A program made the translations under genes and the position numbers. This document shows positions 4,602 to 42,492 of a stretch of DNA of 64,000 bases, piece after piece. The DNA lies in contig JASJPF010000016.1 in NCBI GenBank assembly GCA_031426835.1, positions 24,023 to 88,022 on the forward strand, in the 5' to 3' direction. The notes beneath the pieces were generated by a model. The model saw only the letters and a list, made by a program, of their open reading frames with translations, made no database searches and had not been told where the DNA came from. The stretch comes from Thiobacillus sp. GTDB taxonomy: Bacteria; Pseudomonadota; Gammaproteobacteria; Burkholderiales; Thiobacillaceae. Position 1 is the first letter of the stretch; each line of letters begins with the position of its first letter.

Positions 4602-6017
4602 ATGCTGATTGGCTTTGTCACCCTCTATCTGATTCTCTCCATCGGCATCGGCCTGTTTGCCGCCACCAAAGTCCACAACGCCAGCGACTACATCACCGCA
4701 GGACGTTCACTGCCCATGGTCGTGGTGGTGGCGATGGTATTTGCAACCTGGTTTGGTGCTGAAACCGTACTGGGCATTCCCGCCACTTTCCTTAGCGAAA
4801 ACCTCGGCGCCACGATTTCCGATCCGTTCGGCGCCTCGCTCGCGCTGATTCTGTTCGGCCTGTTTTTCGCCCGCCCTCTGTACCGGATGAAGTTGCTCAC
4901 GCTGGGAGATTTCTTCCGTCGGCGCTACAACCGCCCGGTCGAAATGGTGATTTCGCTGGCCATCGCGCTCTCCTATCTGGGCTGGGTGTCCGCGCAGGTG
5001 GTGGCGCTGGGTCTGGTGTTCAACGTGCTGTCCGACGGTGTCATCACCCAGGTGCAGGGCATCTATATCGGTGCAGCCGTCGTCCTGCTCTATACCTTGT
5101 TCGGTGGCATGTGGTCGGTGGCCCTGACCACGCTGGTGCAAATGACGGTCATCGTCCTGGGGCTTTTATGGATCGCCAAGCTGGTGGGCGACATGCCCGA
5201 AGTGAATGGCATCGCCCCGGTCATTGAACACGCTGCCGCTGCCGGAAAATTCGAATTCTGGCCGCCCATGGAATGGGCCGCGGTGATCACCTTCATCGCC
5301 GGCTTTCTCACCATGGGGCTGGGCTCGATTCCACAGCAAGACGTGTTCCAGCGCGCCAATTCCAGCAGAAGCGAACGCATCGCGGTATGGGGCACCGTCA
5401 TCGGCGGCACCTTGTATTTCGTGTTCGCAGCCGTACCGATCTACCTCACCTACTCGGTCACGCTGGTCGACCCCGCTATGACCACAGCGCTGCTGGCCGA
5501 TGATGCCCAACTGGTCCTGCCCACCTTCATCAAAACCCATCTACCGCTTTATGCGCAGATCATTTTTTACGGCGCCCTGCTCTCGGTCATCATGTCGACG
5601 GCTTCCGGCACCCTGCTCGCGCCATCGGTCACCATCTCGGAAAACATCATCAAGGAACTCATGCCGCATCACCGCATGAGCCAGAAAAAACTGCTATGGA
5701 TCACCCGCAGCGTCGTCGTCGCTTTCACGGTACTGGTGGTGTTTTATTCGCTGTGGTCGCTGCAAACCGAAACCAGCATCCACCAGATGGTGGAAAACGC
5801 CTACAAGGTCACGCTGGCCTGCGCCTTCGTTCCACTGGTTGCCGGACTGTATTGGAAGCGCGCCAGCAACCTGGGGGCGGGACTGTCTATCGTGCTCGGG
5901 CTGGTGGCCTGGATCGCGATGGAATTCATCGCGCCGGATGCCGCATTGCCGCCGCAGTTTTCAGGCTTGATTGCCAGCCTCATCGGCATGGTTGCGGGGT
6001 CGCTGGCCACCCGGTAA
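4602..6017 (+). CDS. Sodium:solute symporter family (SSF) transporter
   Basis: 471 aa polytopic protein. The N-terminal motif DYITAGRSLP...ATWFGAETVLG is typical of SSF permeases. Its TAA stop (6015-6017) coincides with the putative IS630 TA target. Confidence 0.85.
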   Translation: MLIGFVTLYLILSIGIGLFAATKVHNASDYITAGRSLPMVVVVAMVFATWFGAETVLGIPATFLSENLGATISDPFGASLALILFGLFFARPLYRMKLLTLGDFFRRRYNRPVEMVISLAIALSYLGWVSAQVVALGLVFNVLSDGVITQVQGIYIGAAVVLLYTLFGGMWSVALTTLVQMTVIVLGLLWIAKLVGDMPEVNGIAPVIEHAAAAGKFEFWPPMEWAAVITFIAGFLTMGLGSIPQQDVFQRANSSRSERIAVWGTVIGGTLYFVFAAVPIYLTYSVTLVDPAMTTALLADDAQLVLPTFIKTHLPLYAQIIFYGALLSVIMSTASGTLLAPSVTISENIIKELMPHHRMSQKKLLWITRSVVVAFTVLVVFYSLWSLQTETSIHQMVENAYKVTLACAFVPLVAGLYWKRASNLGAGLSIVLGLVAWIAMEFIAPDAALPPQFSGLIASLIGMVAGSLATR

Positions 6018-7037
6018 TTCCCTGGGCTCGTTCCGGGGACTGTTCGAAGTTGGCGAGCGCCAGTTCGAGGTGGTTTTCCAGGGACTCAATACTGTCAAAG
6101 ACACGGTTATGGAAAGATTTCTCACGAAGATCATCCCAGAGGTGTTCGACCGGATTGAGCTCTGGCGCATACGGCGGTAGATACAGCAGTTGAAGATTAT
6201 TGCTTGGCAGGATGATGGCCTGACTGCGATGCCAGCCTGCGCCATCAACCACCATGAGGATGTTTTCTTCCAGGTGGCGGCTTGCGATCTCATCCAGAAA
6301 CACCTGCATACAGGCGCAATTCACACTGGGCAGTATCAGGGTGTCGAGCACGCCATCCACGGGTGAAACGGCGGCGTAGGAATAGGTGTATTCCTGCGTC
6401 ACCATGGCCTGCGTGAGGGGTCGCAGCGGCTTTGGACACCAGCAATACCGGGTTTGCGATATCCGTCCAAATCGCGCCTCGTCCTGGAACATAAGCCTCA
6501 GCGGCGCGGGGTGGTCGAAGCGTTTTTGTGCTTGATCGATTTCTTCGGGGAGTTTTTTTTCCACGCCTCCTGAGCCACCGGGTCTGACTGCGGATGCTGT
6601 TTGTCGGGCGCAAGCTTGCGCCAACCGTGACGGTGCAACATCGCGTACACCGTCGATAACGCCATGGGACGACCCAAGGCCGCCTCGATCTGGGCTTTCA
6701 GCGGCGGCACAATAATCACACCGCCCTGTTTGGCCCGTTCAATATGCGGTGCCAGCAAGGCTGCTTCGGCTTCAAACGTCATGCGCGCCCGGTTGCGCAG
6801 ACCCTTTCGTGTCTTGGGCTGTTCTTCTCCGCTTTGGATGCGGCCAAACCGCTTACGTAGCCTGAGCGCCCAACTCTTCGACACGCCCAAGACCACCCCT
6901 GCGTCGTCAAGCGATAAGCCAAACTTCAAGGGCAGCAATAAAGCTTGCGCCATGCGCAACTCGCCTATCGTCTTCGCATTCGCCGCTTGTGCGATTGCCG
7001 CATCCAGATATTCGCCTCCACCCGCCAATCTTGCCAT
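5980..7037 (-). CDS. IS630-family transposase in two overlapping frames (6498-7037 HTH part; 5980-6624 DDE part) joined by a -1 shift at an A8 run
   Basis: N-terminal frame: MARLAGGGEYLD...HRHGWRKL. C-terminal frame: FQDEARFG...VVDGAGWH...YAPELNPVEHLW (DDE). On the coding strand, TGG AAA AAA AAC (plus-strand T8 at 6553-6560) forms an A_AAA_AAC slippery heptamer. Confidence 0.75.
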
Positions 7038-7286: not shown

Positions 7287-7377
7287 TATATCTCGTCAAG
7301 CTCAGGCCGATTGTGTTTTCAAGGAATAAATCGTGCTGACCCCATTTTCATTTTGAAACATTTTCATTTTGGAGGTC

Positions 7378-8136
7378 ATGATGAAACTCAACAAACTTGC
7401 CACTGCCCTGATGGCCACCGCCCTGATCGGCTTCGGCTCTTCCGCCCAAGCCGTCATTTTGACCGACATCGTCTGGGTCGTGGATACATCCGGTTCCATG
7501 GGCGGCGACATCGCCCAGGTCAAAAACAATATCGTTGCCTTCAATACCGTGATGACCAACGCAGGTATCGATGCCCAATACGGGCTGGTGCGCTTCGGGG
7601 GGCTAAACACGCTGATCCAGGACATCACCACCTTTGCCAACTTCAGTCAGGCCGGAAGTCCTTTCCAGTTGCTGGGAGCTACCGGTGGTGGCACGGAAGA
7701 TGGGTCTGGCGCCATCCAGGTTGCCTTGGGTGCGACTTTCCGCGCGAATTCCGTGCGCAACTTCATTCTTGTGACCGATGAAAATGATGACGTTTCTGGC
7801 AATCGTGTGGCACTCAATGATGCCTTGGCCGCCACAAACATCAAGGAACTTATCAACATCATCGGCAACCCGGGCGATGACGACAATAACTATTACCGCA
7901 ACTTGGCCCCCGCCCATGGTGGCGCATTCTTCAATATTGTAGATTTCCGGGCAAATCCTCAGGCTTTCTTCACGAACTTCACCACGACCAAGGTACAGGA
8001 AACCGTGATCAATTTCTGTGAGGCAAACCCGACCGCTCGACAGTGCACGGGCACCGTTCCCGAACCTAGTGTCCTGGCTCTGCTGGGCATTGGTCTGGCC
8101 GGTCTGGGCGCCATGCGCCGCCGCAAGACTGCCTAA
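7378..8136 (+). CDS. von Willebrand factor A domain protein with PEP-CTERM sorting signal
   Basis: Signal peptide MMKLNKLATALMATALIGFGSSAQA. MIDAS motif VVDTSGSMGG, then GGGTEDG and LVTDEND. C-terminal VPEPSVLALLGIGLAGLGAMRRRKTA. GGAGG at 7371-7375, so the start is 7378 or 7381. Confidence 0.9.
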   Translation: MMKLNKLATALMATALIGFGSSAQAVILTDIVWVVDTSGSMGGDIAQVKNNIVAFNTVMTNAGIDAQYGLVRFGGLNTLIQDITTFANFSQAGSPFQLLGATGGGTEDGSGAIQVALGATFRANSVRNFILVTDENDDVSGNRVALNDALAATNIKELINIIGNPGDDDNNYYRNLAPAHGGAFFNIVDFRANPQAFFTNFTTTKVQETVINFCEANPTARQCTGTVPEPSVLALLGIGLAGLGAMRRRKTA

Positions 8137-8264: not shown

Positions 8265-8283
8265 AATTGTGTTAGCTTCTGAA

Positions 8284-8967
8284 ATGCCCAGACTATCCAG
8301 AGCGGTATTTGCTGGTGTTCCACACCACATCACGCAGCGCGGCAACCGGCGCGAAGACATTTTTTTCGTGGACGAAGATCGCGCAGCCTATCTGTTATGG
8401 CTCAAGGAATACTGCGAGAAATTCGAGGTTGAAATACTCGCCTATTGCCTCATGACCAACCACATCCACCTGGTTGCCGTTCCGGCAACCGACGACGGCC
8501 TGCACCGGGTGTTCAAGCCGCTGCACATGCGCTACGCCCAACGCATCAACCGTGCGCGTGGTTGGAAGGGGCATTTATGGCAAGGTCGGTTTTTCTCATC
8601 ACCCTTGGACGAAGCTTACCTGTGGGCGGCGGTACGCTATGTGGAACGCAACCCGGTACGTGCCGGTATGGAATGCTGTGCAGAGAATTACCGCTGGTCA
8701 AGCGCCGCCGCGCATTGCGGCAAACGAATAGACGGGCTTCTGAATCTGGAATCTGGCTGGAGCAAGCATTTCCTGGAGATGGAAGACTGGTCAGCCTGGC
8801 TTTCCGGGGGAGATGAAGCGGACGAAATCCAGGTGCTGAGGCGAAATGTCGAAAAAGGGCTGCCCTGCGGCTCTGCTGGCTTCGTTCAGAAATTGGGGAG
8901 GCGTGCAGGGCGCTTGCTGGAATATCGTCCTCAGGGCCGCCCTAAAAAGACTGGAGATAATGAATAA
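8284..8967 (+). CDS. REP-associated tyrosine transposase (RayT/TnpA-REP, IS200/IS605-like Y1 HUH family)
   Basis: HHITQRGNRRE..., HUH motif MTNHIHLVAV, and catalytic-Tyr region AAVRYVERNPVRAG. ATG at 8284 is preferred over the GTG at 8269. Confidence 0.85.
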   Translation: MPRLSRAVFAGVPHHITQRGNRREDIFFVDEDRAAYLLWLKEYCEKFEVEILAYCLMTNHIHLVAVPATDDGLHRVFKPLHMRYAQRINRARGWKGHLWQGRFFSSPLDEAYLWAAVRYVERNPVRAGMECCAENYRWSSAAAHCGKRIDGLLNLESGWSKHFLEMEDWSAWLSGGDEADEIQVLRRNVEKGLPCGSAGFVQKLGRRAGRLLEYRPQGRPKKTGDNE

Positions 8968-9097: not shown

Positions 9098-9119
9098 CAT
9101 GGTCTAGTATGAGACCATG
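9098..9119 (+). promoter_or_regulatory. Palindromic candidate operator of the phd/vapC operon
   Basis: CATGGTCT-AGTATG-AGACCATG: perfect 8-bp arms, with the right arm containing the antitoxin ATG (9117). Confidence 0.4.
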
Positions 9120-9362
9120 ATTACGCTGAATCTGAACCAGGCCAAAGCCCACTTATCCGAATGCATCGCCCAAGCCGAAGCTGGGGTGACGGTGGTCATC
9201 TGCAAACGGAACAAGCCCGTGGCCGAGCTCCGCGCGATTCCCCAACCGCAAAAGAAGCTACGCCCTATCGGGCTGCTCAAGGGACAGTTTTCTGTGCCGA
9301 AAGCATTTTTTGAGCCGCTGCCGGATGAGATCATCGCCGCATTCGAGGGGCGCGGGGGTTGA
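9117..9362 (+). CDS. Type II antitoxin, Phd/YefM family
   Basis: 81 aa, MITLNLNQAKAHLSECIAQAEAGVTVVICKRNKPVAEL. Overlaps the downstream PIN toxin gene by 4 nt. Confidence 0.85.
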   Translation: MITLNLNQAKAHLSECIAQAEAGVTVVICKRNKPVAELRAIPQPQKKLRPIGLLKGQFSVPKAFFEPLPDEIIAAFEGRGG

Positions 9363-9748
9363 ACCGCTACCTCCTGGATACATGCACGTTTCTCTGGCTG
9401 GTTGCAGGCAGCGACACGCTCTCCAAAGCGGCAAGGGAAATCATCCGCAATCCCGATAACGAGGTTTTTCTCTCCGTGGTGAGCGCTTGGGAAATTGTGG
9501 TTAAACACGGCATTAACAAGCTACCGTTGCCACAAAAACCTGACCTGTTCGTGCGCCGCCAGCGCGAAGATCACATGCTGGCAAGTTTGCCATTACTGGA
9601 AGCGCATGTGCTGACGCTGATCAAGCTGCCGGGCATTCATCACGACCCGTTTGATCGAATGCTGGTATGCCAGGCGGTGGCTGAAGGTTTGACGGTTCTG
9701 ACACCGGACGAGGCTATCAGCCAATATCCCGTTCGTACGGCGTGGTAG
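9359..9748 (+). CDS. vapC: Type II toxin VapC (PIN-domain ribonuclease)
   Basis: 129 aa. YLLDTCTFLW (first acidic residue), SVVSAWEIVVK, HHDPFDRMLVCQA. TTG start overlaps the antitoxin TGA. Confidence 0.9.
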   Translation: MNRYLLDTCTFLWLVAGSDTLSKAAREIIRNPDNEVFLSVVSAWEIVVKHGINKLPLPQKPDLFVRRQREDHMLASLPLLEAHVLTLIKLPGIHHDPFDRMLVCQAVAEGLTVLTPDEAISQYPVRTAW

Positions 9749-9751: not shown

Positions 9752-11380
9752 TCAGCGTAAATACCCCTCGTGCTCCAGTTTGAGTAGGACTTGTTGCACC
9801 GCTTCCTCGATTCCCAGGCTGGTGGTATCGATCGCCAGTTCGGCATTTTCTGGCACTTCATAGGGATCGGACACCCCGGTAAACTCGGGAATCAACCCTG
9901 CCCGAGCCTTGGCATACAAGCCTTTTCGGTCACGTGCTTCGCAGGTTTCGATCGGAGTGGCGACATGGACTTCGACAAACCCACCGACCGCTTCAATCAT
10001 CGCCCGCACATCCCGACGGGTTTGCTTATACGGTGCGATCGGTGCACAGATGGCAATACCGCAATTTTTCGTAATTTCGGACGCCACAAAGCCAATCCTG
10101 CGCACATTGATATCGCGATGCGCTTTGGAAAACCCCAACTCTGAAGACAGGTTACGGCGAACAATGTCGCCGTCAAGCAGGGTCACCATGCGCCCACCGG
10201 TTTCCATCAAACGCGCCGCCAGCATGCGTGCCAGCGTGGACTTCCCTGCACCGGACAAACCGGTAAAAAATACGGTGAAGCCCTGACGCTCACGCGGGGG
10301 ATTCTGCCGTTTCAGTTCGGCCAACACTTCGGGAAAGCTATACCAGTCTGGAATTTTCAGACCGGACTGCAAGCGCCGCTGGAACTCTTCTCCGCTCAGG
10401 GTCAGAAGCCTGGAACCGGGCGGCGCTTCCGATTCTGGCAGGTATTCCGCACGGTCTTCCACATACACCATGCGCGGATAGGCAATCAGCTTTACGCCAA
10501 TCATTTCAGCCTGTTTCACCGCCTGATGATCAGCATGGTGTTCGTCAAGGTCTTTACCTCGCCGATAATTTCCATCTGAAAGATGTTGGCCTCCTGCAAT
10601 CAGCAGGGCACAACCATAATTTCGTGCAACGATGGCACGCAGCAGCAGTGAACGTGGGCTGGCCTCGCGTGGGGGCGCCGGAAAAAGCGATAACTGGGTC
10701 GTCGCCGCAGGGAAACGATCACGAATGGCGATAAAACTTCGCACCAAACCAAAGTAACCGGGCGCATCTGTAATGTCGCCTCCGGCCTTGGGGTGCAACA
10801 ACAGGTTGGCTTCGTGGGAAATTGCACTTTTCAGGCAGAACTCAAACTGCGCCCGGTGCATCGGTTGGCGTGCCTGCCAGGCCACCACACGCCGCCAGCC
10901 TCTGCGCGCAAACAGGGCGCGCAGTTCGGCCGGAGTGGCGCGCAGCGATGCAAAATCAGGATGGGGGGGCAATGCAACGCCTTCAACCTTTCCGCCCACA
11001 TGCCAGACGCCAGCATCATCCCACGCATCAGCGATGGTCAAAATGGCAAGCATGTATCCCTCACCATCGCGTAGCGCAACACGGTCCCCGGTTTTCATTT
11101 TTTCCGTGGCGTGATGCTGAAAAGCCAGGGAAATCGGCAGCGGCCAAAACGTACCGTCATCCAGTTTTTGATCGGTTTCGACTTGCGCACATTGAGCGCG
11201 CGTCATGAACCCGGTCAGGGGTGAGTAGGCGCCCGTCATCAGCATTTCAAGATCGCATTGCTGACGCCAATCCAGATCGATCGAGGGCAAACTGAAAGCC
11301 TCTTGCTTGAGTGCTTCAGTCTTCGCGGGGTCAATCAGATTGACGAGGTTGCCGCCGTAGGGCGAGATCAATTGATCCAC
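9752..11380 (-). CDS. cysC: Two-domain APS kinase: N-terminal ATP-sulfurylase-like domain with degenerate catalytic motifs + C-terminal adenylylsulfate kinase
   Basis: 542 aa. The C-terminal domain carries FFTGLSGAGKSTLA, LLDGDIVRRNL and GLIPEFTGVSDPYE. The N-terminal domain is Sat-like but reads QARQPMHRAQ (canonical QTRNPxHRxH) and AGGQHLS (canonical GRDHAG). GTG start lies 3 nt after the DHH stop. Confidence 0.88.
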   Translation of the reverse strand: MDQLISPYGGNLVNLIDPAKTEALKQEAFSLPSIDLDWRQQCDLEMLMTGAYSPLTGFMTRAQCAQVETDQKLDDGTFWPLPISLAFQHHATEKMKTGDRVALRDGEGYMLAILTIADAWDDAGVWHVGGKVEGVALPPHPDFASLRATPAELRALFARRGWRRVVAWQARQPMHRAQFEFCLKSAISHEANLLLHPKAGGDITDAPGYFGLVRSFIAIRDRFPAATTQLSLFPAPPREASPRSLLLRAIVARNYGCALLIAGGQHLSDGNYRRGKDLDEHHADHQAVKQAEMIGVKLIAYPRMVYVEDRAEYLPESEAPPGSRLLTLSGEEFQRRLQSGLKIPDWYSFPEVLAELKRQNPPRERQGFTVFFTGLSGAGKSTLARMLAARLMETGGRMVTLLDGDIVRRNLSSELGFSKAHRDINVRRIGFVASEITKNCGIAICAPIAPYKQTRRDVRAMIEAVGGFVEVHVATPIETCEARDRKGLYAKARAGLIPEFTGVSDPYEVPENAELAIDTTSLGIEEAVQQVLLKLEHEGYLR

Positions 11381-11383
11381 AGT

Positions 11384-12346
11384 TCAGCTCCGGGTGAAAA
11401 CTGCATAAAAGGCAGTAACAAATCGATCGACTTCGGACTCGGGCAAGTGATTGATGCCCGCAGCGCCTTTGCGACCGCCGCCTGTCTCGAACTGGCTGCA
11501 CAGCACGTCCGCACCTGACCTGGCTTCCAGCGGGGCGCGAACACTCACCACATATCCCCCTGATGGCTTGGCCGTGAGGACAGCATGCGCCTGTGCGGGG
11601 CTATCGACGGCGAGTTGATTACCCAACACGCCGGAAATCCGCCGCGCCCATTTCTCTGCAGGCAGCATGAAAATACGTCCGACGGTGCGCGTTTCTGTTG
11701 CATTTACGGCGACGGCGCGGACCATGTCGCTCTGGTAACCGGTCTTAAGCGTTTGATAGGCGGGCGACTCGGCAATGAAAGCGAAAGGATTGGAAAATGG
11801 GCGCAACTGGCGATACAAATCGGCCGGGTCGTAAAACAGGTCGTCGAGCGTTTCACCGTAACCGTTGTAGTTGAGGCATTCACCCAGTGATTTCAGTTGA
11901 AGCAGTTGACCATCAGACAGGTTGAGCGGCGCGGCAGCCTGACGCGCCGCATCAGCCAGGTTGTCACCAAACGCAGCAGTCACGGCCCATACCAACTGTT
12001 TACCTTGCAAAGTATGGTTGACCAGGAGGCTGGTGCACGTGTTGGCATCGGTATCAATATGCGGTTCGAAATGAGGGTGCGAGGGAATATCGCCGGGCTG
12101 ATGGTGGTCAAAGTAGCGCACATACGCACCCGCCTTGAGAAGTTGATCCAGCGCTTCGCGGTTTTTTGACAGCGCGATATCAAGCACGGTGATGCGGTCC
12201 CCTGCAGCGGCTTTTGCCCGCCCCAGCAAGCTGATATCGCGCTTGGGGCCCGTTATCAAATCGGCCTCGATCGGGTCGACCAAACGCAACTGATGCAGTG
12301 CGCAAATACCGTCGGCGTCGCCGTTGAATACATCAATGAAATGCAT
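11384..12346 (-). CDS. DHH/DHHA1-family phosphoesterase (NrnA-like; candidate pAp phosphatase)
   Basis: FNGDADGICA (motif I), FDHHQP (DHH), ETGGGRKGAAG (DHHA1 GGGH-type motif). ATG at 12346 overlaps the upstream gene by 14 nt. Confidence 0.82.
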   Translation of the reverse strand: MHFIDVFNGDADGICALHQLRLVDPIEADLITGPKRDISLLGRAKAAAGDRITVLDIALSKNREALDQLLKAGAYVRYFDHHQPGDIPSHPHFEPHIDTDANTCTSLLVNHTLQGKQLVWAVTAAFGDNLADAARQAAAPLNLSDGQLLQLKSLGECLNYNGYGETLDDLFYDPADLYRQLRPFSNPFAFIAESPAYQTLKTGYQSDMVRAVAVNATETRTVGRIFMLPAEKWARRISGVLGNQLAVDSPAQAHAVLTAKPSGGYVVSVRAPLEARSGADVLCSQFETGGGRKGAAGINHLPESEVDRFVTAFYAVFTRS

Positions 12347-14642
12347 GGGATGCCGGGGAGTGAAGCCGTTGAGCGGCGCGGAAGTATGGCCATTGTATGA
12401 ATGAAAGTGCTGTAATGACAAGAACATGCAACGCACCGTAGCGCAGCCAGATGACAGTTTGCGTGACGTAATGCTGGCGGTCCGGGCTCAATAAAAACTG
12501 CAGTGCCGAAAACTGCTGGTCATATTTGTGGATTTCGCCTGCCAGCCCGACGTACAGAAACAATGCAGCCAATGGCAACGAAATGAGGCCTCCAGCCAAC
12601 CGGGGGATGCGCTGGCCCGCGGACGAGGGCGAAGCGATCAAGGCCGCTGCAAAGAACACGGTGAAAAGCCAGGCACATAACACCACAAAAGCCAGCGGTT
12701 GTGGCTCAGCAATCAACTCGGTGAGATTGTCAGTTCCCGCCTGCATCACCACGCCCCAATACGCCAACACCAAACTTGGAACCGCGCTCCAGAATTGCAT
12801 GGCGCCGAGCCTTCGCCCACGCCACCGTCGAACGGCTTGCGCAGCCAGATATAACAACGTACCCGGTATCGCAGCCAGCGCAATCCAGCGCAGCCCGATC
12901 TCCCATTGCCCCGCCCAGCCCAACACCGGGCTACCCACCACATCATGCAGGCTTTCATCCGGGACGGCCATTTTCAGCATGAGAAATGACACCCCGCCAT
13001 AAACCAGCAAACCCAACGGCAATTGCCACAGACGATGGACGCCGGATAGTTGGAGCCGGGCCAGCCACACAGGCCACACTGCCAGCCAGTAACACACGCC
13101 GGCAAGCAGCAAAGCCGACAACCAGATGGCATCCTGCCGGAGCAGTTCACGCGCGTTGTACGGCACAAAGGGTGCATGCGCCGCGCTCCAAAACAGCAAC
13201 CCCATCCCGGCGATCATCAATGGAAAATGCCAGCGCATTCCGGCTACCGGAGTCGCGGCAGTCTGCGCCGGCGGATGATCGGTTGTTCCTTGAAATATGG
13301 CGCGACGCGGCGCATGCAATATGCGGCGCGCCACCCAATAGCCCGCGAGTCCACCCAGCCAGGCCAAAAACCAATCGGTGGTGTCGGCAATTTTAAGGGG
13401 CAGCATCACCTGCCCCAACTCAACGATGGCAGGCATCATCGCCAGTGTCAGCATGGCCAGCGCGAACAACGGCCCACGCCAACGCCAGGGCTGGCGTGCC
13501 ACGCCCCATGCCAGCAATCCGCCAAGTGGCGCAAAGAATAGGGTCTTGCGCAGGACCTCGGTAATGGCACGATACTCAGTGCCGAAGTAATACACCTCGA
13601 ACGGCACTCGATAAATAAAATCGAGACGACTTTTGATAAAAGCGCCGTCAGTGCGGAATTCGAAGGGAAACCAGAACACGAATAACAACACGACCATCCA
13701 CCCCAATGCCAAGGCAAATGGCAGCCATGCTGCCCAAGGCAGGGCGTGATTCTCGGTTGCTTCGCGCTTAGCCAAACGCCCGCCGACAAAGCTGCCTAAT
13801 GCCGCCCCAGCGGCCGCTGTAAACAAGTCGGTGACATCGCTCACGCGCGAGTAGACAAACAGTTGTAAAAACTCCAGCAGGGTGGCAGTCGCCAATGCCA
13901 TACCCCATGCACGCCATGCGCTGCGCGTTCCATCCAGCCGCCAAAGCAGCGCGAGGGGTGTCCAGATCAGGGCATCGCTGGCGATTTCATACAGGGCGTA
14001 GGCGGCATCGTCCGGCAGCCGTCCAAACGGAATCAGGTTGAGCTTGCCGCTCTGCCACTTATGGAATATCTCGACCAGGCTGATGGTCAGATCAAGCGGC
14101 AGAACGTTATAAGTCAAGACGCCTGCCAAATACACCCAGGCCAAACGTTCTGCCAGTGCGGCGCGAGCATGAAGGTGCTGCCAGGACTGCAGCCAGCCAA
14201 CAAAGCGATGACCGCCCCCCCACCAAGCCAGCACGCCGATGGCACCACCCAGCGCCTCGGCCATGATGTCATTCTGCGAAACGGTACGTTGCGGGAAAAA
14301 CAGCTGGCTAAACTCGATACCGAAACTGAAAGCAGTAGCCGCCGGAATCAGCGCCAACGTGGCCAACACGCCAAAAACACGGCTCTTTCCGGCCACCAAT
14401 GCGCTCATCCATAAAAACGACAAAGGAATGAATAGCAGAAGATTGGCCACCCAGTCGGCGCGCGAGCCGATACCCAGTTCAAGAAACGGGATCTCGCCAA
14501 ACCGTGCAATCGCCTCGCCCCAGGGGATGGGCCGAAAGTCCAGTGGAACCAGACTGCCATAAATAACAAATACGGTGTATGCCAGTGCGGCCATCCACAA
14601 CAGGCCGCTGGAATTTCCGGAAGCCTTCACGTCGCGGTTCAT
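12333..14642 (-). CDS. Polytopic membrane protein with three tandem VanZ-like modules plus a ~300-aa multi-TM C-terminal region of unknown family
   Basis: Three repeats of the VanZ signature E-x-x-Q-x(4-5)-R/K-x(3)-D: IEFSQLFFPQRTVSQNDIMAEALGGAIG, LEFLQLFVYSRVSDVTDLFTAAAGAALG, VELGQVMLPLKIADTTDWFLAWLGGLAG. Start taken at ATG 14642, which overlaps the upstream TGA as ATGA. Confidence 0.72.
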   Translation of the reverse strand: MNRDVKASGNSSGLLWMAALAYTVFVIYGSLVPLDFRPIPWGEAIARFGEIPFLELGIGSRADWVANLLLFIPLSFLWMSALVAGKSRVFGVLATLALIPAATAFSFGIEFSQLFFPQRTVSQNDIMAEALGGAIGVLAWWGGGHRFVGWLQSWQHLHARAALAERLAWVYLAGVLTYNVLPLDLTISLVEIFHKWQSGKLNLIPFGRLPDDAAYALYEIASDALIWTPLALLWRLDGTRSAWRAWGMALATATLLEFLQLFVYSRVSDVTDLFTAAAGAALGSFVGGRLAKREATENHALPWAAWLPFALALGWMVVLLFVFWFPFEFRTDGAFIKSRLDFIYRVPFEVYYFGTEYRAITEVLRKTLFFAPLGGLLAWGVARQPWRWRGPLFALAMLTLAMMPAIVELGQVMLPLKIADTTDWFLAWLGGLAGYWVARRILHAPRRAIFQGTTDHPPAQTAATPVAGMRWHFPLMIAGMGLLFWSAAHAPFVPYNARELLRQDAIWLSALLLAGVCYWLAVWPVWLARLQLSGVHRLWQLPLGLLVYGGVSFLMLKMAVPDESLHDVVGSPVLGWAGQWEIGLRWIALAAIPGTLLYLAAQAVRRWRGRRLGAMQFWSAVPSLVLAYWGVVMQAGTDNLTELIAEPQPLAFVVLCAWLFTVFFAAALIASPSSAGQRIPRLAGGLISLPLAALFLYVGLAGEIHKYDQQFSALQFLLSPDRQHYVTQTVIWLRYGALHVLVITALSFIQWPYFRAAQRLHSPASHAFH

Positions 14643-15892
14643 GGTTGCGCAGTGTCCAGCGTACGCAGCAAGGCGGGGGGTATTTTTGCCCCGGGACGCC
14701 CCGTTGCTTGCCAACCAGGATAGTCTGAAAATTCGCGCATCAAGCCAGAGGGCAAGTCGTGCGCCACAGACTCTAACGCCAGCAAACGCGCGGTGAGATC
14801 CGGAACGGGGACGCTCGCCAGCTCGCGTCGATAGGCCAAGGTGACATTTTGTGCCGCCTCGCCGCCATGCAGGGGCGTGCTGGCCGCCACGACGTTAGCG
14901 ATCACGTACTGACGATAAGCGGTGCTGTCGCCCCTGCGCACCTGGATGCCCGTGCCCGAAGCCAGTATCGTATTGGAAAAAATCGCCATGTCACGCGGCA
15001 CGTCATTGTGCGGCTGGATATGAATCGCATCGCCGCTGTCGTTGATGAACGCATTGTCATACAACGCCATCCGGCCTTCCGCCTGCAGCAGCGCTTCGGT
15101 CGGATTCGGCAAAAAAAGATTGCCATAGACCAGATAGCGGTCCTCGCTGCCAGGCCCCGCCAAGGGGAAATGTCCCAGCAGAACATTGGGACGGGCTTGC
15201 GGCCCGGGCAAGGTGTCCTGCTTGGAGAATACGTTATAACGAATCATCGTATCGTGAGGCTCTGCGATGTCGGGCGGACGTGTTTTCTGATGTTTGAATT
15301 GCAGGTTGTAACCCAGCGTATGCGAGACATGATTGGCTTCTATGAGGCCGCCGATAAAGGGGTCGGAGCCATCCGAATCGCCAAAGTACATCCCGGTGCC
15401 GACTCGCTCGATACGATTCTTCCTGACCACCCAGCCCAGCGCCGGACATTTGGTCGAGATGCCCACATTTTGCTGCGAAGCTGCATGGTCATGGATGAAG
15501 AGGTGCTCCAGGGTAATGAAATCGGCAAAACGACTATGGCCTTCAGCCTTGAGTGCATCCACCGGCACATTGCGACCATCCAGTTCCAGATAGCGCAATA
15601 TCAGATAACGCACATTGACCAGGCTGACCGTATTGGCCCCCGGCCGCGCGATGAACCGCGGCAAGGGTGCTGAAGGGTTAAGCGCTTCGATGATAATGGG
15701 TTGGCCGGAGCGACCAGACAACTCATGCAAGGGTAGGCCCTGACGATAGTCGCCGGCCTTGAGCAGCAATCGATCGCCCGGTTGCAGCCGACGCAGCTGT
15801 TCGCGGTAATCATCAGGACCCGCACGGTAGTCTGCTGCAAACACCATGCCAGACGCCAGACAGAGCAACCCCGCGCAGACCCTGTCCAGCAT
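14639..15892 (-). CDS. Secreted right-handed parallel beta-helix repeat protein (polysaccharide lyase/epimerase-like fold)
   Basis: Signal peptide MLDRVCAGLLCLASGMVFAADY. Repetitive N/G/I-rich beta-helix-type turns (HLFIHDH, RKNRIERVGTGMYFGDS, GGLIEANHV, YDNAFINDSGDAIHI, FSNTILASGTGIQV). Its ATG directly abuts the aroK TGA (TGAATG). Confidence 0.65.
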   Translation of the reverse strand: MLDRVCAGLLCLASGMVFAADYRAGPDDYREQLRRLQPGDRLLLKAGDYRQGLPLHELSGRSGQPIIIEALNPSAPLPRFIARPGANTVSLVNVRYLILRYLELDGRNVPVDALKAEGHSRFADFITLEHLFIHDHAASQQNVGISTKCPALGWVVRKNRIERVGTGMYFGDSDGSDPFIGGLIEANHVSHTLGYNLQFKHQKTRPPDIAEPHDTMIRYNVFSKQDTLPGPQARPNVLLGHFPLAGPGSEDRYLVYGNLFLPNPTEALLQAEGRMALYDNAFINDSGDAIHIQPHNDVPRDMAIFSNTILASGTGIQVRRGDSTAYRQYVIANVVAASTPLHGGEAAQNVTLAYRRELASVPVPDLTARLLALESVAHDLPSGLMREFSDYPGWQATGRPGAKIPPALLRTLDTAQP

Positions 15893-16444
15893 TCAGACCA
15901 CCGTATCGGGCGGAGGCAAACCACTCCGCAACAAATCCAGCTTGCCCAACAGAACCCGCATCATGCCGGCAACGCCTTGCCGCCCGGTATCCACCACGAT
16001 ATCGGCCACTTCCCGGTACAGCGGGTCCCGCTGCTGATATAACTCACGTAACCTGGCCAGCGGATCCTCGGTTTGTAACAGGGGGCGATTGCGGTCGTGC
16101 CGGGTACGCTCATACAGATGCTCCGGTGTTCCACGCAAGTAAATCACCACCCCATTTTTCCGCAAATTCTCACGGGTAACGGACGACAGCACCGCGCCGC
16201 CACCGGTGGCCAGCACAATGCCGGTCATGGCCGTCAGCTCGGCAATCACCCCTTCCTCGCGCTTGCGAAAGCCCGCTTCGCCCTCGATTTCGAAAACAAC
16301 CGGAATCTTGACGCCGGTGCGTGCCTCGATTTCGTGATCCGAGTCATGGAAGGCACAACCATAATGCCTGGCCAGCAGTCGTCCCACCGTGGTTTTTCCG
16401 GCACCCATCAGTCCGACGAGGAAAAGATTGTCTCGCTTGCTCAT
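15893..16444 (-). CDS. aroK: Shikimate kinase
   Basis: LFLVGLMGAGKTTVGRLLA, GGGAVL. Sits after pilQ, as is canonical. Confidence 0.95.
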   Translation of the reverse strand: MSKRDNLFLVGLMGAGKTTVGRLLARHYGCAFHDSDHEIEARTGVKIPVVFEIEGEAGFRKREEGVIAELTAMTGIVLATGGGAVLSSVTRENLRKNGVVIYLRGTPEHLYERTRHDRNRPLLQTEDPLARLRELYQQRDPLYREVADIVVDTGRQGVAGMMRVLLGKLDLLRSGLPPPDTVV

Positions 16445-16558
16445 GGCGCCATTCTAATTGAGAGTCCCCTGATGGGCAGCGGTGTAAGTTGGGCGAGAGA
16501 AGAAAATCAGGGCGAAAAAAAGCGCGGGGCCAGCCCGCGCTCGAATGGGTAATCGCGA

Positions 16559-18871
16559 TCAGCGAATCGACAGACGATCGTCGAGAATGCGCGGTGTGAT
16601 AAAGATAATCAGCTCGGTTTTGCTGTTTTCCTTGCTTGTGGTCTTGAACAGGTTGCCGAACACTGGAATATCCCCCAACAGCGGCACCTTGCTGACAGAT
16701 GAGCTTTCCTCACCATCGAAAATGCCGCCCAAAACCAGGGTCTCTCCATTGTTCACCCGCACCTGGGTCTTGACCCGCTTGGTGTCGATTGCGGGGATAC
16801 CTGTAATTTCCGGGATATTGCGCACGGCGTCTTTTTGCACTTCGACCGTCAGAATGATCGAATCGTTGTTAAGAATTTGCGGGTCAACCAGCAAGCATAG
16901 GAAAGCGTCCTTGAATGTGACTGTTTGAGTTACCCCACCGCCCGCACTTACCGTGGTTGTGACGTACGGTATTTGCGTGCCGTTAAGAATTACCGCCGGC
17001 CTCTGATTGGACGTCAGCACACGGGGATTGGAAATCACCTTCCCCTTGTTGTCCGCTTCCAGCGCACGCAACTCCAGGCTCAGAAGGTTGCCGTTGGCGA
17101 GATTCAGCAAGGACAAGGCCAGATTAGCAGCGCCCGGCACGTCCAACGAGGATGGCAGCGCCTGTCCGCTAGCCGAAGGGTTCGCACTGGAAGGTACCCC
17201 CCCAATCTGATGACCCAAAACACTTCTCTGCGGTGCCTTGGTCATCTGAAATCCCAAGCGCGCGCCCAGATCACGGCTCCAGCCATCGGTCGCGACCACC
17301 ACCCGCGCCTCGATCATGACCTGGCGCGCAGGCACGTCCAGACGTGCGAGCAGTTCGCGCACTTCCTGAATCTTGCGCGCCGTGTCGGTGATGATCAGCG
17401 TGTTGGTTTTCAGCTCATAGGTCGCACGGCCGCGCTTGGTCAGGACTTTCTGGTCGTTTTCTCCCTGGCCTTTCTGCGAGGCCTGTGCCGCAGCCGCACC
17501 GCCCAGACCCTGCGCCTGCGCCGAGCAGTTCACCGAGTTGTTACCGGCAGAGGCGAGGAAGGCGCCGGATGCGAAGCCGTACAGCATGGTTTGCGCTTCA
17601 TCCGCCCGCATGTAGTTCATCTGGATGTATTCGGTGGTCAGAGGTTCCAGATCGGCCACAGCCGACTTGGCTTCGAACTCCAGTTTCTCTCTGGTCATCA
17701 GTTCGTCCTTGGGCGCGATCCAGATCACGTTTCCGTTCTGGCGCTTGTCCAGGCCCTTGCTCTGCATGATGAGGTCGAGCGCCTGATCCCACGGCACGTC
17801 TTTCAGGCGCAATGTCAGGTTGCCATTTACGGTATCGCTGGCAATGATGTTGAGGCCGGTGAAGTCGGCGATGACCTGCAGCACCGAGCGCACTTCGACA
17901 TTCTGGAAATTGAGCGAGAGCTTTTCGCCGACGTATTTGACCTTGCCGTCAGCGGTCTTTTTCTGGGCATCATCACTCTGTTTGACTTCAACAATGAAGC
18001 TGTTGTCAGTCTGATAGGCCGAATACTCCCAGCCGCCTTTGGGCTGTATCACCATGCGGGTGTTATCACCCAATGTATACGTCTCAACGGTTTGCACCGG
18101 AGTGCCGAAGTCAGCCACATCAAGGCGTCGTTGCAACGCTCTGGGCAGCTCCGCACCGATAAAGTCAACCACGATGCCATTGGCTTGCTGACGAATATTG
18201 ATGCCGGTCTGTGCATCAGACAATGTCGTCACAATGCGCGCTTCACCAGCTCCACCACGACGGAAATCAATGTCACGGATAGTATGGGAAGCCGCACCTG
18301 GCGCAGCTTCGGCGAAGCGGGGGCTCACATTTGCCGGCGCTGCGCCCGCGCTGAGATTGCCCAACGCGACGATCAAGGTTTTGCCTTCAATCTTCGCGTC
18401 GTATTCAACCGACTTATTCAAATTAAGCACGAGGCGAGTACGTGTCCCTGCCTGCACCACGTTCACGCTCGTAAGCGGCCCCAAATTGGCTTCAACCGTA
18501 TTGCGCCCCATCGCATTCCCCGTGTCCGGCAGATCAAGCGCGATACGTGGGGGGTTACCGACCGTAAATCCGGCAGGCTCCGCGGTCAGCGCTTTCTTGA
18601 GGGTCACGCGCACCACCACTTTGCCGCCTGGCAGCGTGGTGGTTTCAACGTTCTGTACCGCGTTACCGGTGGGCGGCATGTCAGCCGCGTGTACCGCAAG
18701 CGGAAGCACCAAGCCTGTGAGCAGGGCCATCCCGATCAGTTGACGGTACATACGATCTTTCACGCGCTTCAGCTTGTAGAAAGTCGGAGTACCCAAAAAG
18801 GGCATTGAGATCCCCTTGTGGGACAGTTTCTGGGCAATGCTACGAACAATGGTTTTGGGCAATGCGTTCAT
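16559..18871 (-). CDS. pilQ: Type IV pilus secretin PilQ
   Basis: 770 aa with AMIN-like N-terminal repeats and a C-terminal secretin domain (VPLLGDIPVFGNLFK). ATG at 18871 is preceded by AAGAGG. A later start (MYRQLIGMALL) is possible. Confidence 0.92.
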   Translation of the reverse strand: MNALPKTIVRSIAQKLSHKGISMPFLGTPTFYKLKRVKDRMYRQLIGMALLTGLVLPLAVHAADMPPTGNAVQNVETTTLPGGKVVVRVTLKKALTAEPAGFTVGNPPRIALDLPDTGNAMGRNTVEANLGPLTSVNVVQAGTRTRLVLNLNKSVEYDAKIEGKTLIVALGNLSAGAAPANVSPRFAEAAPGAASHTIRDIDFRRGGAGEARIVTTLSDAQTGINIRQQANGIVVDFIGAELPRALQRRLDVADFGTPVQTVETYTLGDNTRMVIQPKGGWEYSAYQTDNSFIVEVKQSDDAQKKTADGKVKYVGEKLSLNFQNVEVRSVLQVIADFTGLNIIASDTVNGNLTLRLKDVPWDQALDLIMQSKGLDKRQNGNVIWIAPKDELMTREKLEFEAKSAVADLEPLTTEYIQMNYMRADEAQTMLYGFASGAFLASAGNNSVNCSAQAQGLGGAAAAQASQKGQGENDQKVLTKRGRATYELKTNTLIITDTARKIQEVRELLARLDVPARQVMIEARVVVATDGWSRDLGARLGFQMTKAPQRSVLGHQIGGVPSSANPSASGQALPSSLDVPGAANLALSLLNLANGNLLSLELRALEADNKGKVISNPRVLTSNQRPAVILNGTQIPYVTTTVSAGGGVTQTVTFKDAFLCLLVDPQILNNDSIILTVEVQKDAVRNIPEITGIPAIDTKRVKTQVRVNNGETLVLGGIFDGEESSSVSKVPLLGDIPVFGNLFKTTSKENSKTELIIFITPRILDDRLSIR

Positions 18872-18902
18872 GTCAGCCTCTTTAGATATTCAGTACTACA
18901 AA

Positions 18903-19400
18903 TCATTCTTGCAAAATCAGGGTGCTGGTGCGTTCGGACCAATCTCCGGCGCTATCCTGAACAATCTCACGCAAAGAAACTTCTCTATCGCTAATCTGCG
19001 TGACGAGACCAAAGTTCTGGCCCACATAATTGCCTTTTTTGACGTGATAAATCGCTTTATCAGGGGTCAAGATCACAGCGTGGATTACCCCGCGTTTCGA
19101 CAACATCCCGACCATTTTCAGCGTTTCCAGTGAAAATGCTTCCAAAGGTTCTTTGGGTCGGTTCAAGTCGGGCTGCATCCCCCCGCCTCCCCCGCTTGAC
19201 AGCTTTCTGGGCTTGAATGGATCGGGCAGATCAAAGGCATTGTAAGTAAACGGTTCAAATGCCTTGACTTCAGGCAGCGGCTCAATTTTCCCTTGCATAT
19301 CCTTGCCCGTTTCATCAACGAAGGCCCGCAAATCGTCCATTCCGCCGCCACCGCAGCCGGTCAGGCTTAACACAAATACCATACTGGCCAGGCGCTTCAT
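18903..19400 (-). CDS. pilP: Type IV pilus lipoprotein PilP
   Basis: Lipobox LSLTGCGGGG. Position between pilO and pilQ. Confidence 0.85.
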   Translation of the reverse strand: MKRLASMVFVLSLTGCGGGGMDDLRAFVDETGKDMQGKIEPLPEVKAFEPFTYNAFDLPDPFKPRKLSSGGGGGMQPDLNRPKEPLEAFSLETLKMVGMLSKRGVIHAVILTPDKAIYHVKKGNYVGQNFGLVTQISDREVSLREIVQDSAGDWSERTSTLILQE

Positions 19401-20017
19401 TTCGCTTGCTCCTTGGCTTTCTGCTTACGGGAAATGAGTTCTTCGTCGTCCAGATAGCGATACGTTCTGACAACTGCGTCCATATTCATCACGCCATCCT
19501 TGGCCGGATTCATCTTGATATCGTGCAGCGTCACGATTCGGGACAGTTTCGAGACGTCACTCACGAAAGCGGCAATGTCATGGTAACCCCCGGTCACTTT
19601 GACGCTGATCGGTGTTTCGGCATAAAACTCGGAAACGGTTTCCGCCGCGGGTCTGAACAATTCAAACTGCAAACCCCGTCCCAAACCCGCCTGGTTCACA
19701 TCGGTGATCAGCGCATCCATTTCCTGTTTATTCGGAAGCTGTTTCAATAGGGCACCAAACGCCTGCTCGATATCCACCAACTGTTTCGTGTAGGCCTCCA
19801 GATTAATAGCCTGATTTTTCTTGGTGGTAAACACGGCTCTCAGTTCGGTTTCCTTTTGCTTGGTCACATCCAGTGCTTCCATGTTGCCGCGCCAAACAAA
19901 CCACCAGCCCGCCGTCACAATGGCCACGCACAACACCGCCAGCGCCACCAGCTTGGTCGCTAACGGCCAGTCCGCCAAAGTTTTTAGATCAAGATTGTTG
20001 AGGTCGTCCAGGGTCAT
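19397..20017 (-). CDS. pilO: Type IV pilus assembly protein PilO
   Basis: 206 aa, single TM plus a coiled region. 4-nt overlaps with pilN and pilP. Confidence 0.85.
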   Translation of the reverse strand: MTLDDLNNLDLKTLADWPLATKLVALAVLCVAIVTAGWWFVWRGNMEALDVTKQKETELRAVFTTKKNQAINLEAYTKQLVDIEQAFGALLKQLPNKQEMDALITDVNQAGLGRGLQFELFRPAAETVSEFYAETPISVKVTGGYHDIAAFVSDVSKLSRIVTLHDIKMNPAKDGVMNMDAVVRTYRYLDDEELISRKQKAKEQAK

Positions 20018-20592
20018 GCTTTGCCCCCCTTGTTCTGCGTATCTGTGGTTTGTTGTGGTGTTTGCTTGACCGTCAGGACAAACTCGTTGGCACGCAGGTT
20101 ATTGACCGTAGCCGACTTGATTTCGACCAAATTGACCGAATCAAACCAGGGTGAACTCTCCAGATTCCGCATCAGCGTGGAAACGCGCGCGCTCGATTGG
20201 GTATAGCCGCTCAGCGTAACCACATTCCCGGATTGACTGAAAGAGTTAAGGTACAAGCCCTCTGGCAGCAGCCGTATCATCTGGTCAAACAAATGCACCA
20301 CTTCTGTACGATTGGATTGCAAGGTTTCAACAACTTGTTTACGCGCCAGCAACGCCTGGGTTTGTTCGCGAATTTTCTTGATTTCGCTGATCTGGATATC
20401 GAGTTTGGCGATTTCCTGATCAAGGAACGCATTCCGCGCATCCTGCGTCGACTGGCTCGCAGCGATAAAACTGTGGCCGAGCAGAACAATGAAGACACCC
20501 GCGGCGACAGCCATGCCGAGAAGAATGTTGAACTGGCGCCGCCGAGCCGCGCGCGCAAGTTCTCGGTGAGGGAGAAGGTTAATCCGAATCAT
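20014..20592 (-). CDS. pilN: Type IV pilus assembly protein PilN
   Basis: MIRINLLPHRE N-terminus, single TM. Confidence 0.87.
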   Translation of the reverse strand: MIRINLLPHRELARAARRRQFNILLGMAVAAGVFIVLLGHSFIAASQSTQDARNAFLDQEIAKLDIQISEIKKIREQTQALLARKQVVETLQSNRTEVVHLFDQMIRLLPEGLYLNSFSQSGNVVTLSGYTQSSARVSTLMRNLESSPWFDSVNLVEIKSATVNNLRANEFVLTVKQTPQQTTDTQNKGGKA

Positions 20593-26676: not shown

Positions 26677-26699
26677 TCGCGCGCCCCTGACGCGCCGCC

Positions 26700-30133: not shown

Positions 30134-30150
30134 GCCGGCACGTCAGAGTG

Positions 30151-32412: not shown

Positions 32413-32431
32413 TCTCAGGGCATCCGTATGT

Positions 32432-34707: not shown

Positions 34708-34794
34708 CTGGTGCGTTCCCTGGATATCGTAATGGCATACCAGTTTATCGGTAAAAAGGAGCGATATACTGTCGAACGATCCGCATTGTTGTTG

Positions 34795-34809
34795 AATGTG
34801 TAACACATT
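34795..34809. promoter_or_regulatory. Perfect 15-bp palindrome in the divergent LolA-like/prsT intergenic region
   Basis: AATGTGT-A-ACACATT, 22 nt upstream of the prsT ATG. Confidence 0.3.
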
Positions 34810-34830
34810 ATTCTAAACAGGATTTCTTTA

Positions 34831-37623: not shown

Positions 37624-37635
37624 GGGCCCTTCCTG

Positions 37636-41449: not shown

Positions 41450-41525
41450 GGTAAATCTCCTAATGGTATTTGTTAATGGTACTTGTTTAAGCCACATAGC
41501 CGCAGACTCGGCATGCCTAACAATA

Positions 41526-41541
41526 AGCACACGCTATGCCA
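41526..41541 (-). promoter_or_regulatory. Sigma-54 (-24/-12) promoter of the PEP-CTERM gene
   Basis: Minus strand reads TGGCATAGCGTGTGCT in canonical register, 77-92 nt upstream of ATG 41449. Confidence 0.65.
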
Positions 41542-42484: not shown

Positions 42485-42492
42485 ACTAACTT

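Follow-up and report, generated by a model that had tools for sequence, protein, structure and literature searches.

A putative composite gene block downstream of aroK in Thiobacillus sp.: an APS kinase and a predicted MtPAPP-like phosphatase beside a triple-VanZ membrane protein and a beta-helix protein

What does a sulfur oxidiser do with a dedicated kinase for adenosine 5'-phosphosulfate (APS), and why is the gene of this enzyme preceded by genes of apparent envelope function? We addressed this question in a 64,000-nucleotide (nt) stretch of Thiobacillus sp. DNA (contig JASJPF010000016.1, positions 24,023 to 88,022), referred to below as the window, in which the shikimate kinase gene aroK is followed by four closely spaced genes, i.e. 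those of a beta-helix-like protein, a membrane protein with three VanZ domains (VanZ3), a DHH-fold protein and a two-domain APS kinase. On balance, we consider it reasonably probable that the block is a composite operon beginning at aroK and made of two evolutionarily separable halves. The core half, ancient and widely conserved, would comprise the DHH-fold and APS-kinase genes. The other half, belonging to the Thiobacillus lineage and encoding a predicted secreted beta-helix protein and the triple-VanZ membrane protein, would have been inserted between aroK and the DHH-kinase pair.

Layout of the block and identity of the kinase

The genes of the block and the pilus genes preceding them are, with coordinates in the window:

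16559-21677, minus strand: pilMNOPQ, preceding aroK
15893-16444, minus strand: aroK (shikimate kinase), 183 amino acids (aa), Pfam SKI 173.5 bits
14639-15892, minus strand: beta-helix-like gene, 417 aa
12333-14642, minus strand: VanZ3 gene, 769 aa
11384-12346, minus strand: DHH-like gene, 320 aa
9752-11380, minus strand: two-domain APS kinase gene, 542 aa

For aroK, the NCBIfam model PRK05057 (shikimate kinase AroK) scored 189.4 bits, slightly under its 195-bit cut-off. All four junctions described in the initial annotation (aroK/beta-helix, beta-helix/VanZ3, VanZ3/DHH and DHH/kinase) were present. The stop codon of aroK directly abuts the next start (GTC TGA ATG), the TGA of the beta-helix gene and the ATG of VanZ3 share ATGA at 14642-14639, the DHH ATG at 12346 lies 14 nt within the VanZ3 gene (stop codon at 12335-12333), and 3 nt separate the DHH TGA from the kinase GTG at 11380. 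The DHH start at 12346 agrees with the length of 318-322 aa found in essentially all homologues, and the alignment of the kinase to PDB entry 3CR8 begins at residue 2. These junctions indicate co-translation, yet they are statistically not unusual: their positions had been given exactly, but their description as extremely tight fits what is ordinary operon spacing, 4-nt overlaps occurring also among pilM/N/O/P of the same window.

A Pfam scan was run on the long open reading frames (ORFs) of the window, except pilM/N/O/P and 52090-53439. No DHQ_synthase was found among the scanned ORFs, in line with the reported absence of aroB from the window. The domain calls made previously held overall, with one domain overlooked, as the protein called APS kinase contains PUA_2, ATP-sulfurylase-like and APS_kinase domains, all three present. 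It also matched NCBIfam NF004040 (739.7 bits) and carries the P-loop GLSGAGKST.

Along its full length, this kinase shares 88% identity with Tbd_0210 of T. denitrificans (3CR8), its residues 2-542 matching 3-544 at E 3.9e-302. Its sulfurylase motif reads QARQPMHRAQ, compared with the canonical QTRNPMHRAH, i.e. QTRNP and HxxH are lost, and this degenerate motif was present in every two-domain kinase partner of a DHH gene that was retrieved; the separate sat gene of locus L075 keeps the canonical QTRNPMHRAH. The two proteins are orthologues sharing the degenerate HRAQ/QARQP motifs, with no material difference between them. APS reportedly causes substrate inhibition of the T. denitrificans kinase. 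According to Gay et al. 2009, as cited in PMC13213808, the sulfurylase-like domain of Tbd_0210 is catalytically inactive and stabilises the hexamer; the published work, as cited there, covers the enzyme alone, without operon partners. A literature search on Tbd_0207-0211 found nothing relevant. The kinase of the window would phosphorylate APS to 3'-phosphoadenosine 5'-phosphosulfate (PAPS), an activity known for the T. denitrificans orthologue, its inactive sulfurylase-like domain serving oligomerisation. The block offers a handle on the retention, by an obligate sulfur oxidiser, of a dedicated APS kinase whose sulfurylase domain is dead.

The DHH-fold protein and its pairing with APS kinases

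The partner of the kinase fell under the family thresholds: Pfam DHH (PF01368) matched at 20.3 bits, below the 28.1-bit cut-off, and neither DHHA1 (PF02272) nor any NCBIfam model gave a match. Its relatives were mostly sub-threshold as well, two of the eight scanned passing the DHHA1 cut-off of 25.9 bits (P0357, 26.5 bits; P0360, 29.8 bits). The AlphaFold2 model, with a predicted local distance difference test score (pLDDT) of 97.4, has a two-domain DHH + DHHA1 fold. Comparison with the PDB returned 70 fold matches at E<=1e-3, and the best 50 of the 70 all belong to the DHH superfamily (RecJ, Cdc45-like, NrnA, GdpP, PggH and MtPAPP). The top match was 8A8K, the structure of MtPAPP (E 4.7e-14, template modelling (TM) score 0.73/0.74); the best RecJ-like matches had TM scores of 0.66-0.68 and NrnA 0.45-0.49.

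MtPAPP is a non-canonical DHH phosphatase of 315 aa from Methanothermococcus thermolithotrophicus, specific for 3'-phosphoadenosine 5'-phosphate (PAP), whose gene adjoins the ATP sulfurylase and APS kinase genes (Jespersen et al. 2023, PMC10322725). Its Mn ligands are H6, D8, D10, D57, H76, H77 and D127 (PMC10322725), and residues N8, D10, D12, D56, H81, H82 and D128 of the Thiobacillus protein match their order and spacing, with an Asn where MtPAPP has a His two residues ahead of the first Asp. The two proteins are also of similar size (315 vs 320 aa), share the DHH/linker/DHHA1 layout and have an APS kinase gene alongside. MtPAPP is archaeal, whereas the family studied here comes from beta-, gamma- and zetaproteobacteria and is known by sequence and model. 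Searches of PDB sequences with phmmer or profiles did not retrieve 8A8K up to E=10, at an identity of 12%, and the authors of MtPAPP likewise reported no sequence homology between it and other DHH proteins (PMC10322725). As sequence homology is undetectable, the relation rests on fold, ligand pattern and gene context.

We then aligned 40 family members (35-56% identity). Invariant in all 40 were D12 within FNGDADG, DHH at 80-82, G127 of FGDN, R236, R270 and G289/G291/G297; N8, D10, D56, D128 and R292 were conserved in at least 90%. Motifs I-IV of the two-metal DHH site (DxD, D, DHH, D) are thus present in the alignment, and the DHHA1 motif of the family is GGGR-x-x-AAG instead of the superfamily GGGH.

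By fold, ligand pattern and gene context, the most likely function of this protein is that of an MtPAPP-like PAP phosphatase. It would remove the 3'-phosphate of PAP, the toxic by-product of PAPS-consuming reactions, by means of a two-metal DHH site like that of MtPAPP, and would stand in for CysQ, of which the scanned ORFs of the window gave no match. The initial annotation had proposed a pAp phosphatase of the NrnA type; the predicted activity is supported by 8A8K as best fold match, but the type is not, MtPAPP being the better analogue. NrnA/Rv2837c (CnpB) does provide a DHH-type precedent for pAp phosphatase with DHH and DHHA1 domains, and weak profile matches (E~4e-3) to NrnA/Rv2837c, annotated as 'oligoribonuclease and PAP phosphatase', were obtained. 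The Thiobacillus protein differs from it by GGGR in place of GGGH and by sub-threshold scores for Pfam DHH and DHHA1. NrnA membership was rejected on the motif, on the weakness of these profile matches and on its TM score, set against that of MtPAPP.

In a library of representatives at 50% identity, the DHH-like family (about 320 aa) comprised 1084 clusters when the limit was E<=1e-3, of which 278 passed E<=1e-30. It is large, well-defined, proteobacterial and apparently undescribed; our literature search turned up no paper describing a bacterial MtPAPP-like family. Its members bear the public names 'acetyltransferase' (P0003, P0004, P0006, P0050, P0059 and others), 'DHH family phosphoesterase' and 'hypothetical'. 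The first is probably a propagated misannotation, as sequence and model give that name no support. One library representative of 862 aa (P0286) carries a DHH-like domain fused with an N-terminal APH-like phosphotransferase and an AAA_33 P-loop kinase, and is predicted from its sequence to be a kinase-phosphatase fusion.

To assess gene context, 80 DHH loci were collected from one family-profile scan of species-representative genomes. They included loci of Thiobacillus, other Burkholderiales/Hydrogenophilales, Gallionellaceae, Sulfuricella, Nitrosomonas, Nitrosospira and Nitrotoga; Zetaproteobacteria, Thiohalophilus, Granulosicoccus, purple sulfur bacteria and methanotrophs were also represented. 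Adjacency was counted by tblastn with the window proteins, because gene calls kept antisense ORF artefacts (cluster c12), and loci with at least 2.5 kb on each side (59 loci) were considered well-flanked. An APS-kinase domain lay within 2.5 kb of the DHH gene at 37 of the 80 loci (32 of the 59 well-flanked ones), in the following arrangements:

24 loci: two-domain kinase directly downstream
5 loci: single cysC downstream
5 loci: single cysC upstream, same strand
2 loci: single cysC divergent
1 locus: canonical sat + cysC upstream

Since an APS kinase is expected about once per genome, the recurrence of independent arrangements is strong evidence for functional coupling between the DHH protein and the kinase, a coupling that is frequent, not obligatory. 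The earlier proposal of a PAPS/PAP pair is thereby strengthened, the two genes being neighbours in varied arrangements in three proteobacterial classes and the fold match to 8A8K pointing the same way.

Several points weigh against this assignment. At 12% identity, the likeness to MtPAPP could reflect the shared DHH/DHHA1 fold alone, and the DHHA1 motif is GGGR, not GGGH. About 45% of the well-flanked loci (e.g. Thiohalophilus, Granulosicoccus, Mariprofundus) are without a nearby APS kinase, so that the family may have a broader or different substrate, and some Hydrogenophilales carry aroK-VanZ-DHH-SSF without a kinase. These kinase-free loci would also suit a DHH protein that is not a PAP phosphatase at all, i.e. 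a nanoRNase, a cyclic-dinucleotide phosphodiesterase or another enzyme, next to the kinase by accident or for regulatory reasons. The other characterised DHH/DHHA1 relatives among the fold matches listed are indeed nucleases or phosphodiesterases, and the fusion in P0286 involves APH and AAA_33 kinase domains, not an APS kinase. We judge this alternative quite unlikely: the best fold match is a PAP-specific enzyme, and adjacency to a gene present about once per genome, in at least five arrangements and three proteobacterial classes, is hard to obtain by chance.

If PAP is the substrate, as we infer, the family provides a CysQ-equivalent step for many chemolithoautotrophs and methanotrophs (Thiobacillus, Nitrosomonas, Gallionellaceae, Zetaproteobacteria, Methylobacter and others), and the MtPAPP type, described as archaeal, extends to bacteria with a family of about 1,000 clusters at 50% identity.

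Which reaction consumes the PAPS is then the next question. No sulfotransferase was found in the window, as initially stated: the scanned ORFs gave no match to Sulfotransfer_1/2/3, and phmmer with two genuine sulfotransferases neighbouring DHH genes elsewhere (L063, L047) matched no window ORF. The consumer, a sulfotransferase or a PAPS reductase, would be encoded outside the window. In Methylobacter marinus the order is GT2, Sulfotransfer_1/3, GT2, cysC, DHH, and in a gammaproteobacterial metagenome-assembled genome (MAG) a sulfotransferase, a Wzx-like protein, a secreted protein and a putative Wzy-like protein (no Pfam support) are encoded near a divergent cysC-DHH; both sulfotransferases were confirmed by Pfam as Sulfotransfer_1/3. 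Because the pair adjoins such sulfotransferase and glycosyltransferase clusters in relatives, contexts that point to polysaccharide sulfation, we favour the reading, unproven and drawn by analogy, that it would supply sulfation of the envelope or of an exopolysaccharide.

An alternative consumer is suggested by Nitrosomonas, in which the order is cysD-cysN/C-DHH-galE-galU, the DHH gene directly following cysD-cysN/C. The pair could then serve housekeeping sulfate assimilation, PAPS being used by a PAPS reductase (CysH), the DHH protein substituting for CysQ and the envelope genes being passengers. Thiobacillus, however, lives on reduced sulfur and draws its APS pool from dissimilatory oxidation, the sulfurylase domain of the kinase is degenerate, and the DHH-kinase pair is also found with sulfotransferases. 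Although MtPAPP itself serves an assimilatory PAPS-reductase pathway (PMC10322725), we regard housekeeping as unlikely here. The abundance of sulfur oxidisers among the carriers (Thiobacillus, Thiohalophilus, Sulfuricella, Lamprocystis, Thiohalocapsa) and the reported inhibition of the T. denitrificans kinase by APS could also fit a buffering cycle, in which the kinase and the DHH protein, acting as a PAPS 3'-phosphatase, control the APS pool arising from APS reductase in sulfur oxidation. Organisms without APS-based sulfur oxidation (methanotrophs, ammonia oxidisers, iron oxidisers) carry the family equally, and of all the alternatives weighed we hold this one to be the most improbable.

VanZ3, the beta-helix protein and the relation between the halves

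VanZ3 is a polytopic protein of 769 aa that matched Pfam VanZ in three stretches (122.6 bits, cut-off 30.1). VanZ belongs to the lipocone superfamily (Burroughs et al. 2025, PMC12419801), and we used the lipocone motif definitions of that survey (ExxQ in H3, acidic pair in H4). Each domain contains one motif of the form E..Q-(5)-R/K-(2)-D/S-(2)-D, at residues 110, 257 and 408 (E110/Q113/R119/D125; E257/Q260/R266/D269/D272; E408/Q411/K417/D420/D423), and these residues are invariant in 23 homologues with identity down to 56%. The orthologue in T. denitrificans is Tbd_0208. The C-terminal 299 aa had no Pfam match; this conserved polytopic region of about 300 aa (residues ~470-769; 12333-13232, minus strand) belongs to no known family and holds invariant polar motifs, i.e. 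PYN-RE (494-499), ES--D (563-567), TDNL-E (637-642) and KY-Q (706-709).

Lipocones are predicted to act on polyprenyl-linked precursors of peptidoglycan or exopolysaccharide by cleaving or trans-esterifying their phosphate-containing head groups (PMC12419801), and VanZ, Llp1 and YfiM are reported to be lipid-linked oligosaccharide pyrophosphatases (bioRxiv 10.64898/2026.09.16.752124). VanZ3 resembles them by its above-cut-off VanZ match and the conserved ExxQ and acidic H4 motifs of each domain; it differs by its three tandem lipocone domains, its C-terminal polytopic domain of about 300 aa and its partners, DHH and APS kinase. By analogy with VanZ, Llp1 and YfiM, its predicted reaction at the membrane is the cleavage or trans-esterification of polyprenyl-linked glycans at their phosphate head group, which makes a role in the envelope plausible. 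In its main text, the lipocone survey mentions neither DHH, APS kinase nor sulfotransferases (PMC12419801), and the Thiobacillus-specific coupling of a triple VanZ/lipocone protein to the DHH-kinase pair was not found in the lipocone literature searched. This coupling gives an entry point to lipid-carrier chemistry in exopolysaccharide-forming denitrifying sulfur oxidisers. VanZ3, with its conserved C-terminal membrane domain, might itself be a PAPS-dependent membrane enzyme that places sulfate (or a phospho-head group) on a polyprenyl-linked glycan or lipid and is coupled in translation to a PAP phosphatase and a PAPS source of its own, which would make it a sulfotransferase of an unprecedented class; we consider this very unlikely.

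A different, smaller VanZ protein (371 aa) is encoded next to the DHH gene, upstream and divergently, at 16 further loci, all of them betaproteobacterial with aroK...SSF-ubiB synteny. A functional link between VanZ and DHH was not accepted from this neighbourhood alone, which inherited synteny accounts for equally well. At five loci (L039, L056, L071, L076, L081) the gene of the 371-aa VanZ, upstream of DHH and on the opposite strand, is followed by a MazG-like gene and then by one for a thioredoxin-like [2Fe-2S] ferredoxin, identified by eye; this gene order recalls the unusual betaproteobacterial VanZ-1/VanZ-i operon (PMC12419801).

The N-terminus of the beta-helix protein (MLDRVCAGLLCLASGMVFA, followed by AD) resembles a Sec signal by inspection. 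Pfam Beta_helix scored 16.9 bits, below the cut-off, and PF13229 is recorded for many orthologues. In the AlphaFold2 model, built with 25 close homologues, pLDDT was 58 overall, residues ~20-200 exceeding 80 as a beta-helix and the rest falling under 50. Weak profile and fold matches (sequence E 5e-3, TM ~0.3) were obtained with PL6 lyases (including chondroitinase B), GH136, PL9 and RbmB, the PL6 alignments spanning the N-terminal cap only. Like PL6 lyases (chondroitinase B, alginate lyases) and other carbohydrate enzymes of the right-handed beta-helix kind, the protein is modelled with an N-terminal beta-helix and appears exported, and secretion is plausible from its sequence. A firm fold assignment was dropped, the C-terminal half being poorly modelled and the fold matches indicative at most; "polysaccharide-enzyme-like" is the limit of what can be assigned.

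Do these two genes belong with the DHH-kinase pair? The block had been presented as four genes that might be conserved together, and synteny among Thiobacillus loci did not bear this out, only DHH and kinase being constant (ATCC 25259, L008, L043, L050, L014). In T. denitrificans ATCC 25259, aroK is followed after 176 nt by VanZ3 (Tbd_0208), DHH and kinase (Tbd_0210), and the beta-helix gene is absent. L008, L043 and L050 are without VanZ3, the beta-helix gene or both, or have degraded copies: VanZ3 is lacking in L008 and L043, and both are lacking in L050, which carries a divergent single-domain VanZ gene instead. In L014 the order is directly pilQ-aroK-DHH-kinase. Co-conservation of the four genes was therefore discarded on these five loci. 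Outside Thiobacillus and its close relatives, full-length VanZ3 and beta-helix proteins are essentially absent.

Two observations tell against the composite reading as we have drawn it. The 14-nt VanZ3/DHH overlap is kept in every Thiobacillus locus with VanZ3, including ATCC 25259, which argues for at least joint expression of the halves and possibly for a closer integration than the word "composite" conveys; selection in Thiobacillus seems to favour expressing VanZ3 together with the DHH-kinase pair. The other is the poor model of the beta-helix protein, at the pLDDT given above.

The conserved overlap is also the point at which a single envelope-sulfation module has to be weighed. In such a module, the kinase would give PAPS, an unlinked or unrecognised sulfotransferase would sulfate a lipid-linked or exported glycan, the DHH protein would clear PAP, and VanZ3 and the beta-helix protein would process or release the same sulfated polymer. 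Besides the overlap, kept across Thiobacillus with the type strain included, the translational coupling across all four genes is in its favour, as is the position of cysC-DHH within the sulfotransferase/glycosyltransferase clusters of Methylobacter and of the gammaproteobacterial MAG, the latter with its Wzx-like gene. Among the weak matches of the beta-helix protein is PL6 chondroitinase B, an enzyme with a sulfated glycan as substrate, regulators of a PEP-CTERM/exosortase exopolysaccharide system lie 9 kb off, and in a Burkholderiales MAG (L022) the genes of beta-helix, VanZ3-like, DHH and kinase proteins also stay together. On the other hand, the genes are not co-conserved, the beta-helix gene being gone in ATCC 25259 and VanZ3 in L008, L043 and L014; the VanZ-type neighbours of DHH are betaproteobacterial only, which is compatible with inherited synteny; and the scanned ORFs of the window are without a sulfotransferase. 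An integrated module is possible but doubtful. We retain the composite operon, in which a functional tie between the halves, like the lipid-linked glycan as VanZ3 substrate, is something we infer.

Boundaries and surroundings of the block

Three features bear on the limits of the block and on its possible transcription:

16520-16542, minus strand: terminator-like hairpin between pilQ and aroK, GAGCGCGGG-CTGGC-CCCGCGCTT then TTTTTTCG (9 pairs, 7 of them GC, followed by a T-run)
12392-12421, minus strand: promoter-like site in the 3' end of VanZ3, TTGTCA-18-TACAAT (10/12 consensus matches)
9117-9748, plus strand: Phd/YefM antitoxin and PIN toxin pair, convergent and abutting the kinase stop, the boundary of the unit

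The pilQ-aroK spacer of 114 nt contains the strong hairpin listed above, and T. denitrificans ATCC 25259 has a comparable one after pilQ (L082 9180-9215). This putative terminator, recognised by its match to the consensus, suggests that transcription of aroK and the genes downstream is not a mere continuation of that of the pilus operon. The initial view that the block is fused onto pilMNOPQ is weakened accordingly, this spacer and its hairpin standing between pilQ and aroK.

The promoter-like site lies about 45 nt before the DHH start, in the last ~30 codons of VanZ3, and is identical in ATCC 25259 (L082 12234-12263). It could let DHH and kinase be expressed independently, a lead from the sequence only; its conservation may merely reflect the VanZ3 protein, because the site is in coding sequence.

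On the other side of the block, the antitoxin was matched by Pfam PhdYeFM_antitox (E 1e-6; 28.9 bits, just missing the cut-off of 29.8) and the toxin by PIN (E 1.8e-11). The pair is missing at the corresponding position in ATCC 25259. Mobile and accessory genes, the toxin-antitoxin pair among them, separate the kinase from SSF-ubiB in the window; in other Thiobacillus genomes, SSF-ubiB is close behind the kinase. Two transposases were recognised:

5980-7037, minus strand: IS630-like transposase with helix-turn-helix and DDE_3 parts, in two overlapping ORFs, possibly frameshifted
8269-8967, plus strand: IS200-like Y1 transposase

About 9 kb from the block, the window contains a PEP-CTERM/exosortase-type exopolysaccharide locus (25282-40431, both strands, plus 7369-8136 and 40688-41530). 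It encodes an EpsB-like Bac_transf sugar transferase, a GAF histidine kinase and a sigma-54 response regulator (PrsK/PrsR-like), two TPR proteins of about 930 aa (PrsT-like), a MMPL/DUF1302/LolA-like trio and two PEP-CTERM proteins, one with a VWA domain. Genes for a FeeM-like N-acyl amino acid synthase, a ThiF-family protein and a methyltransferase (41693-44185) adjoin that of a PEP-CTERM protein; FeeM-like acyltransferases are a known exosortase-associated family.

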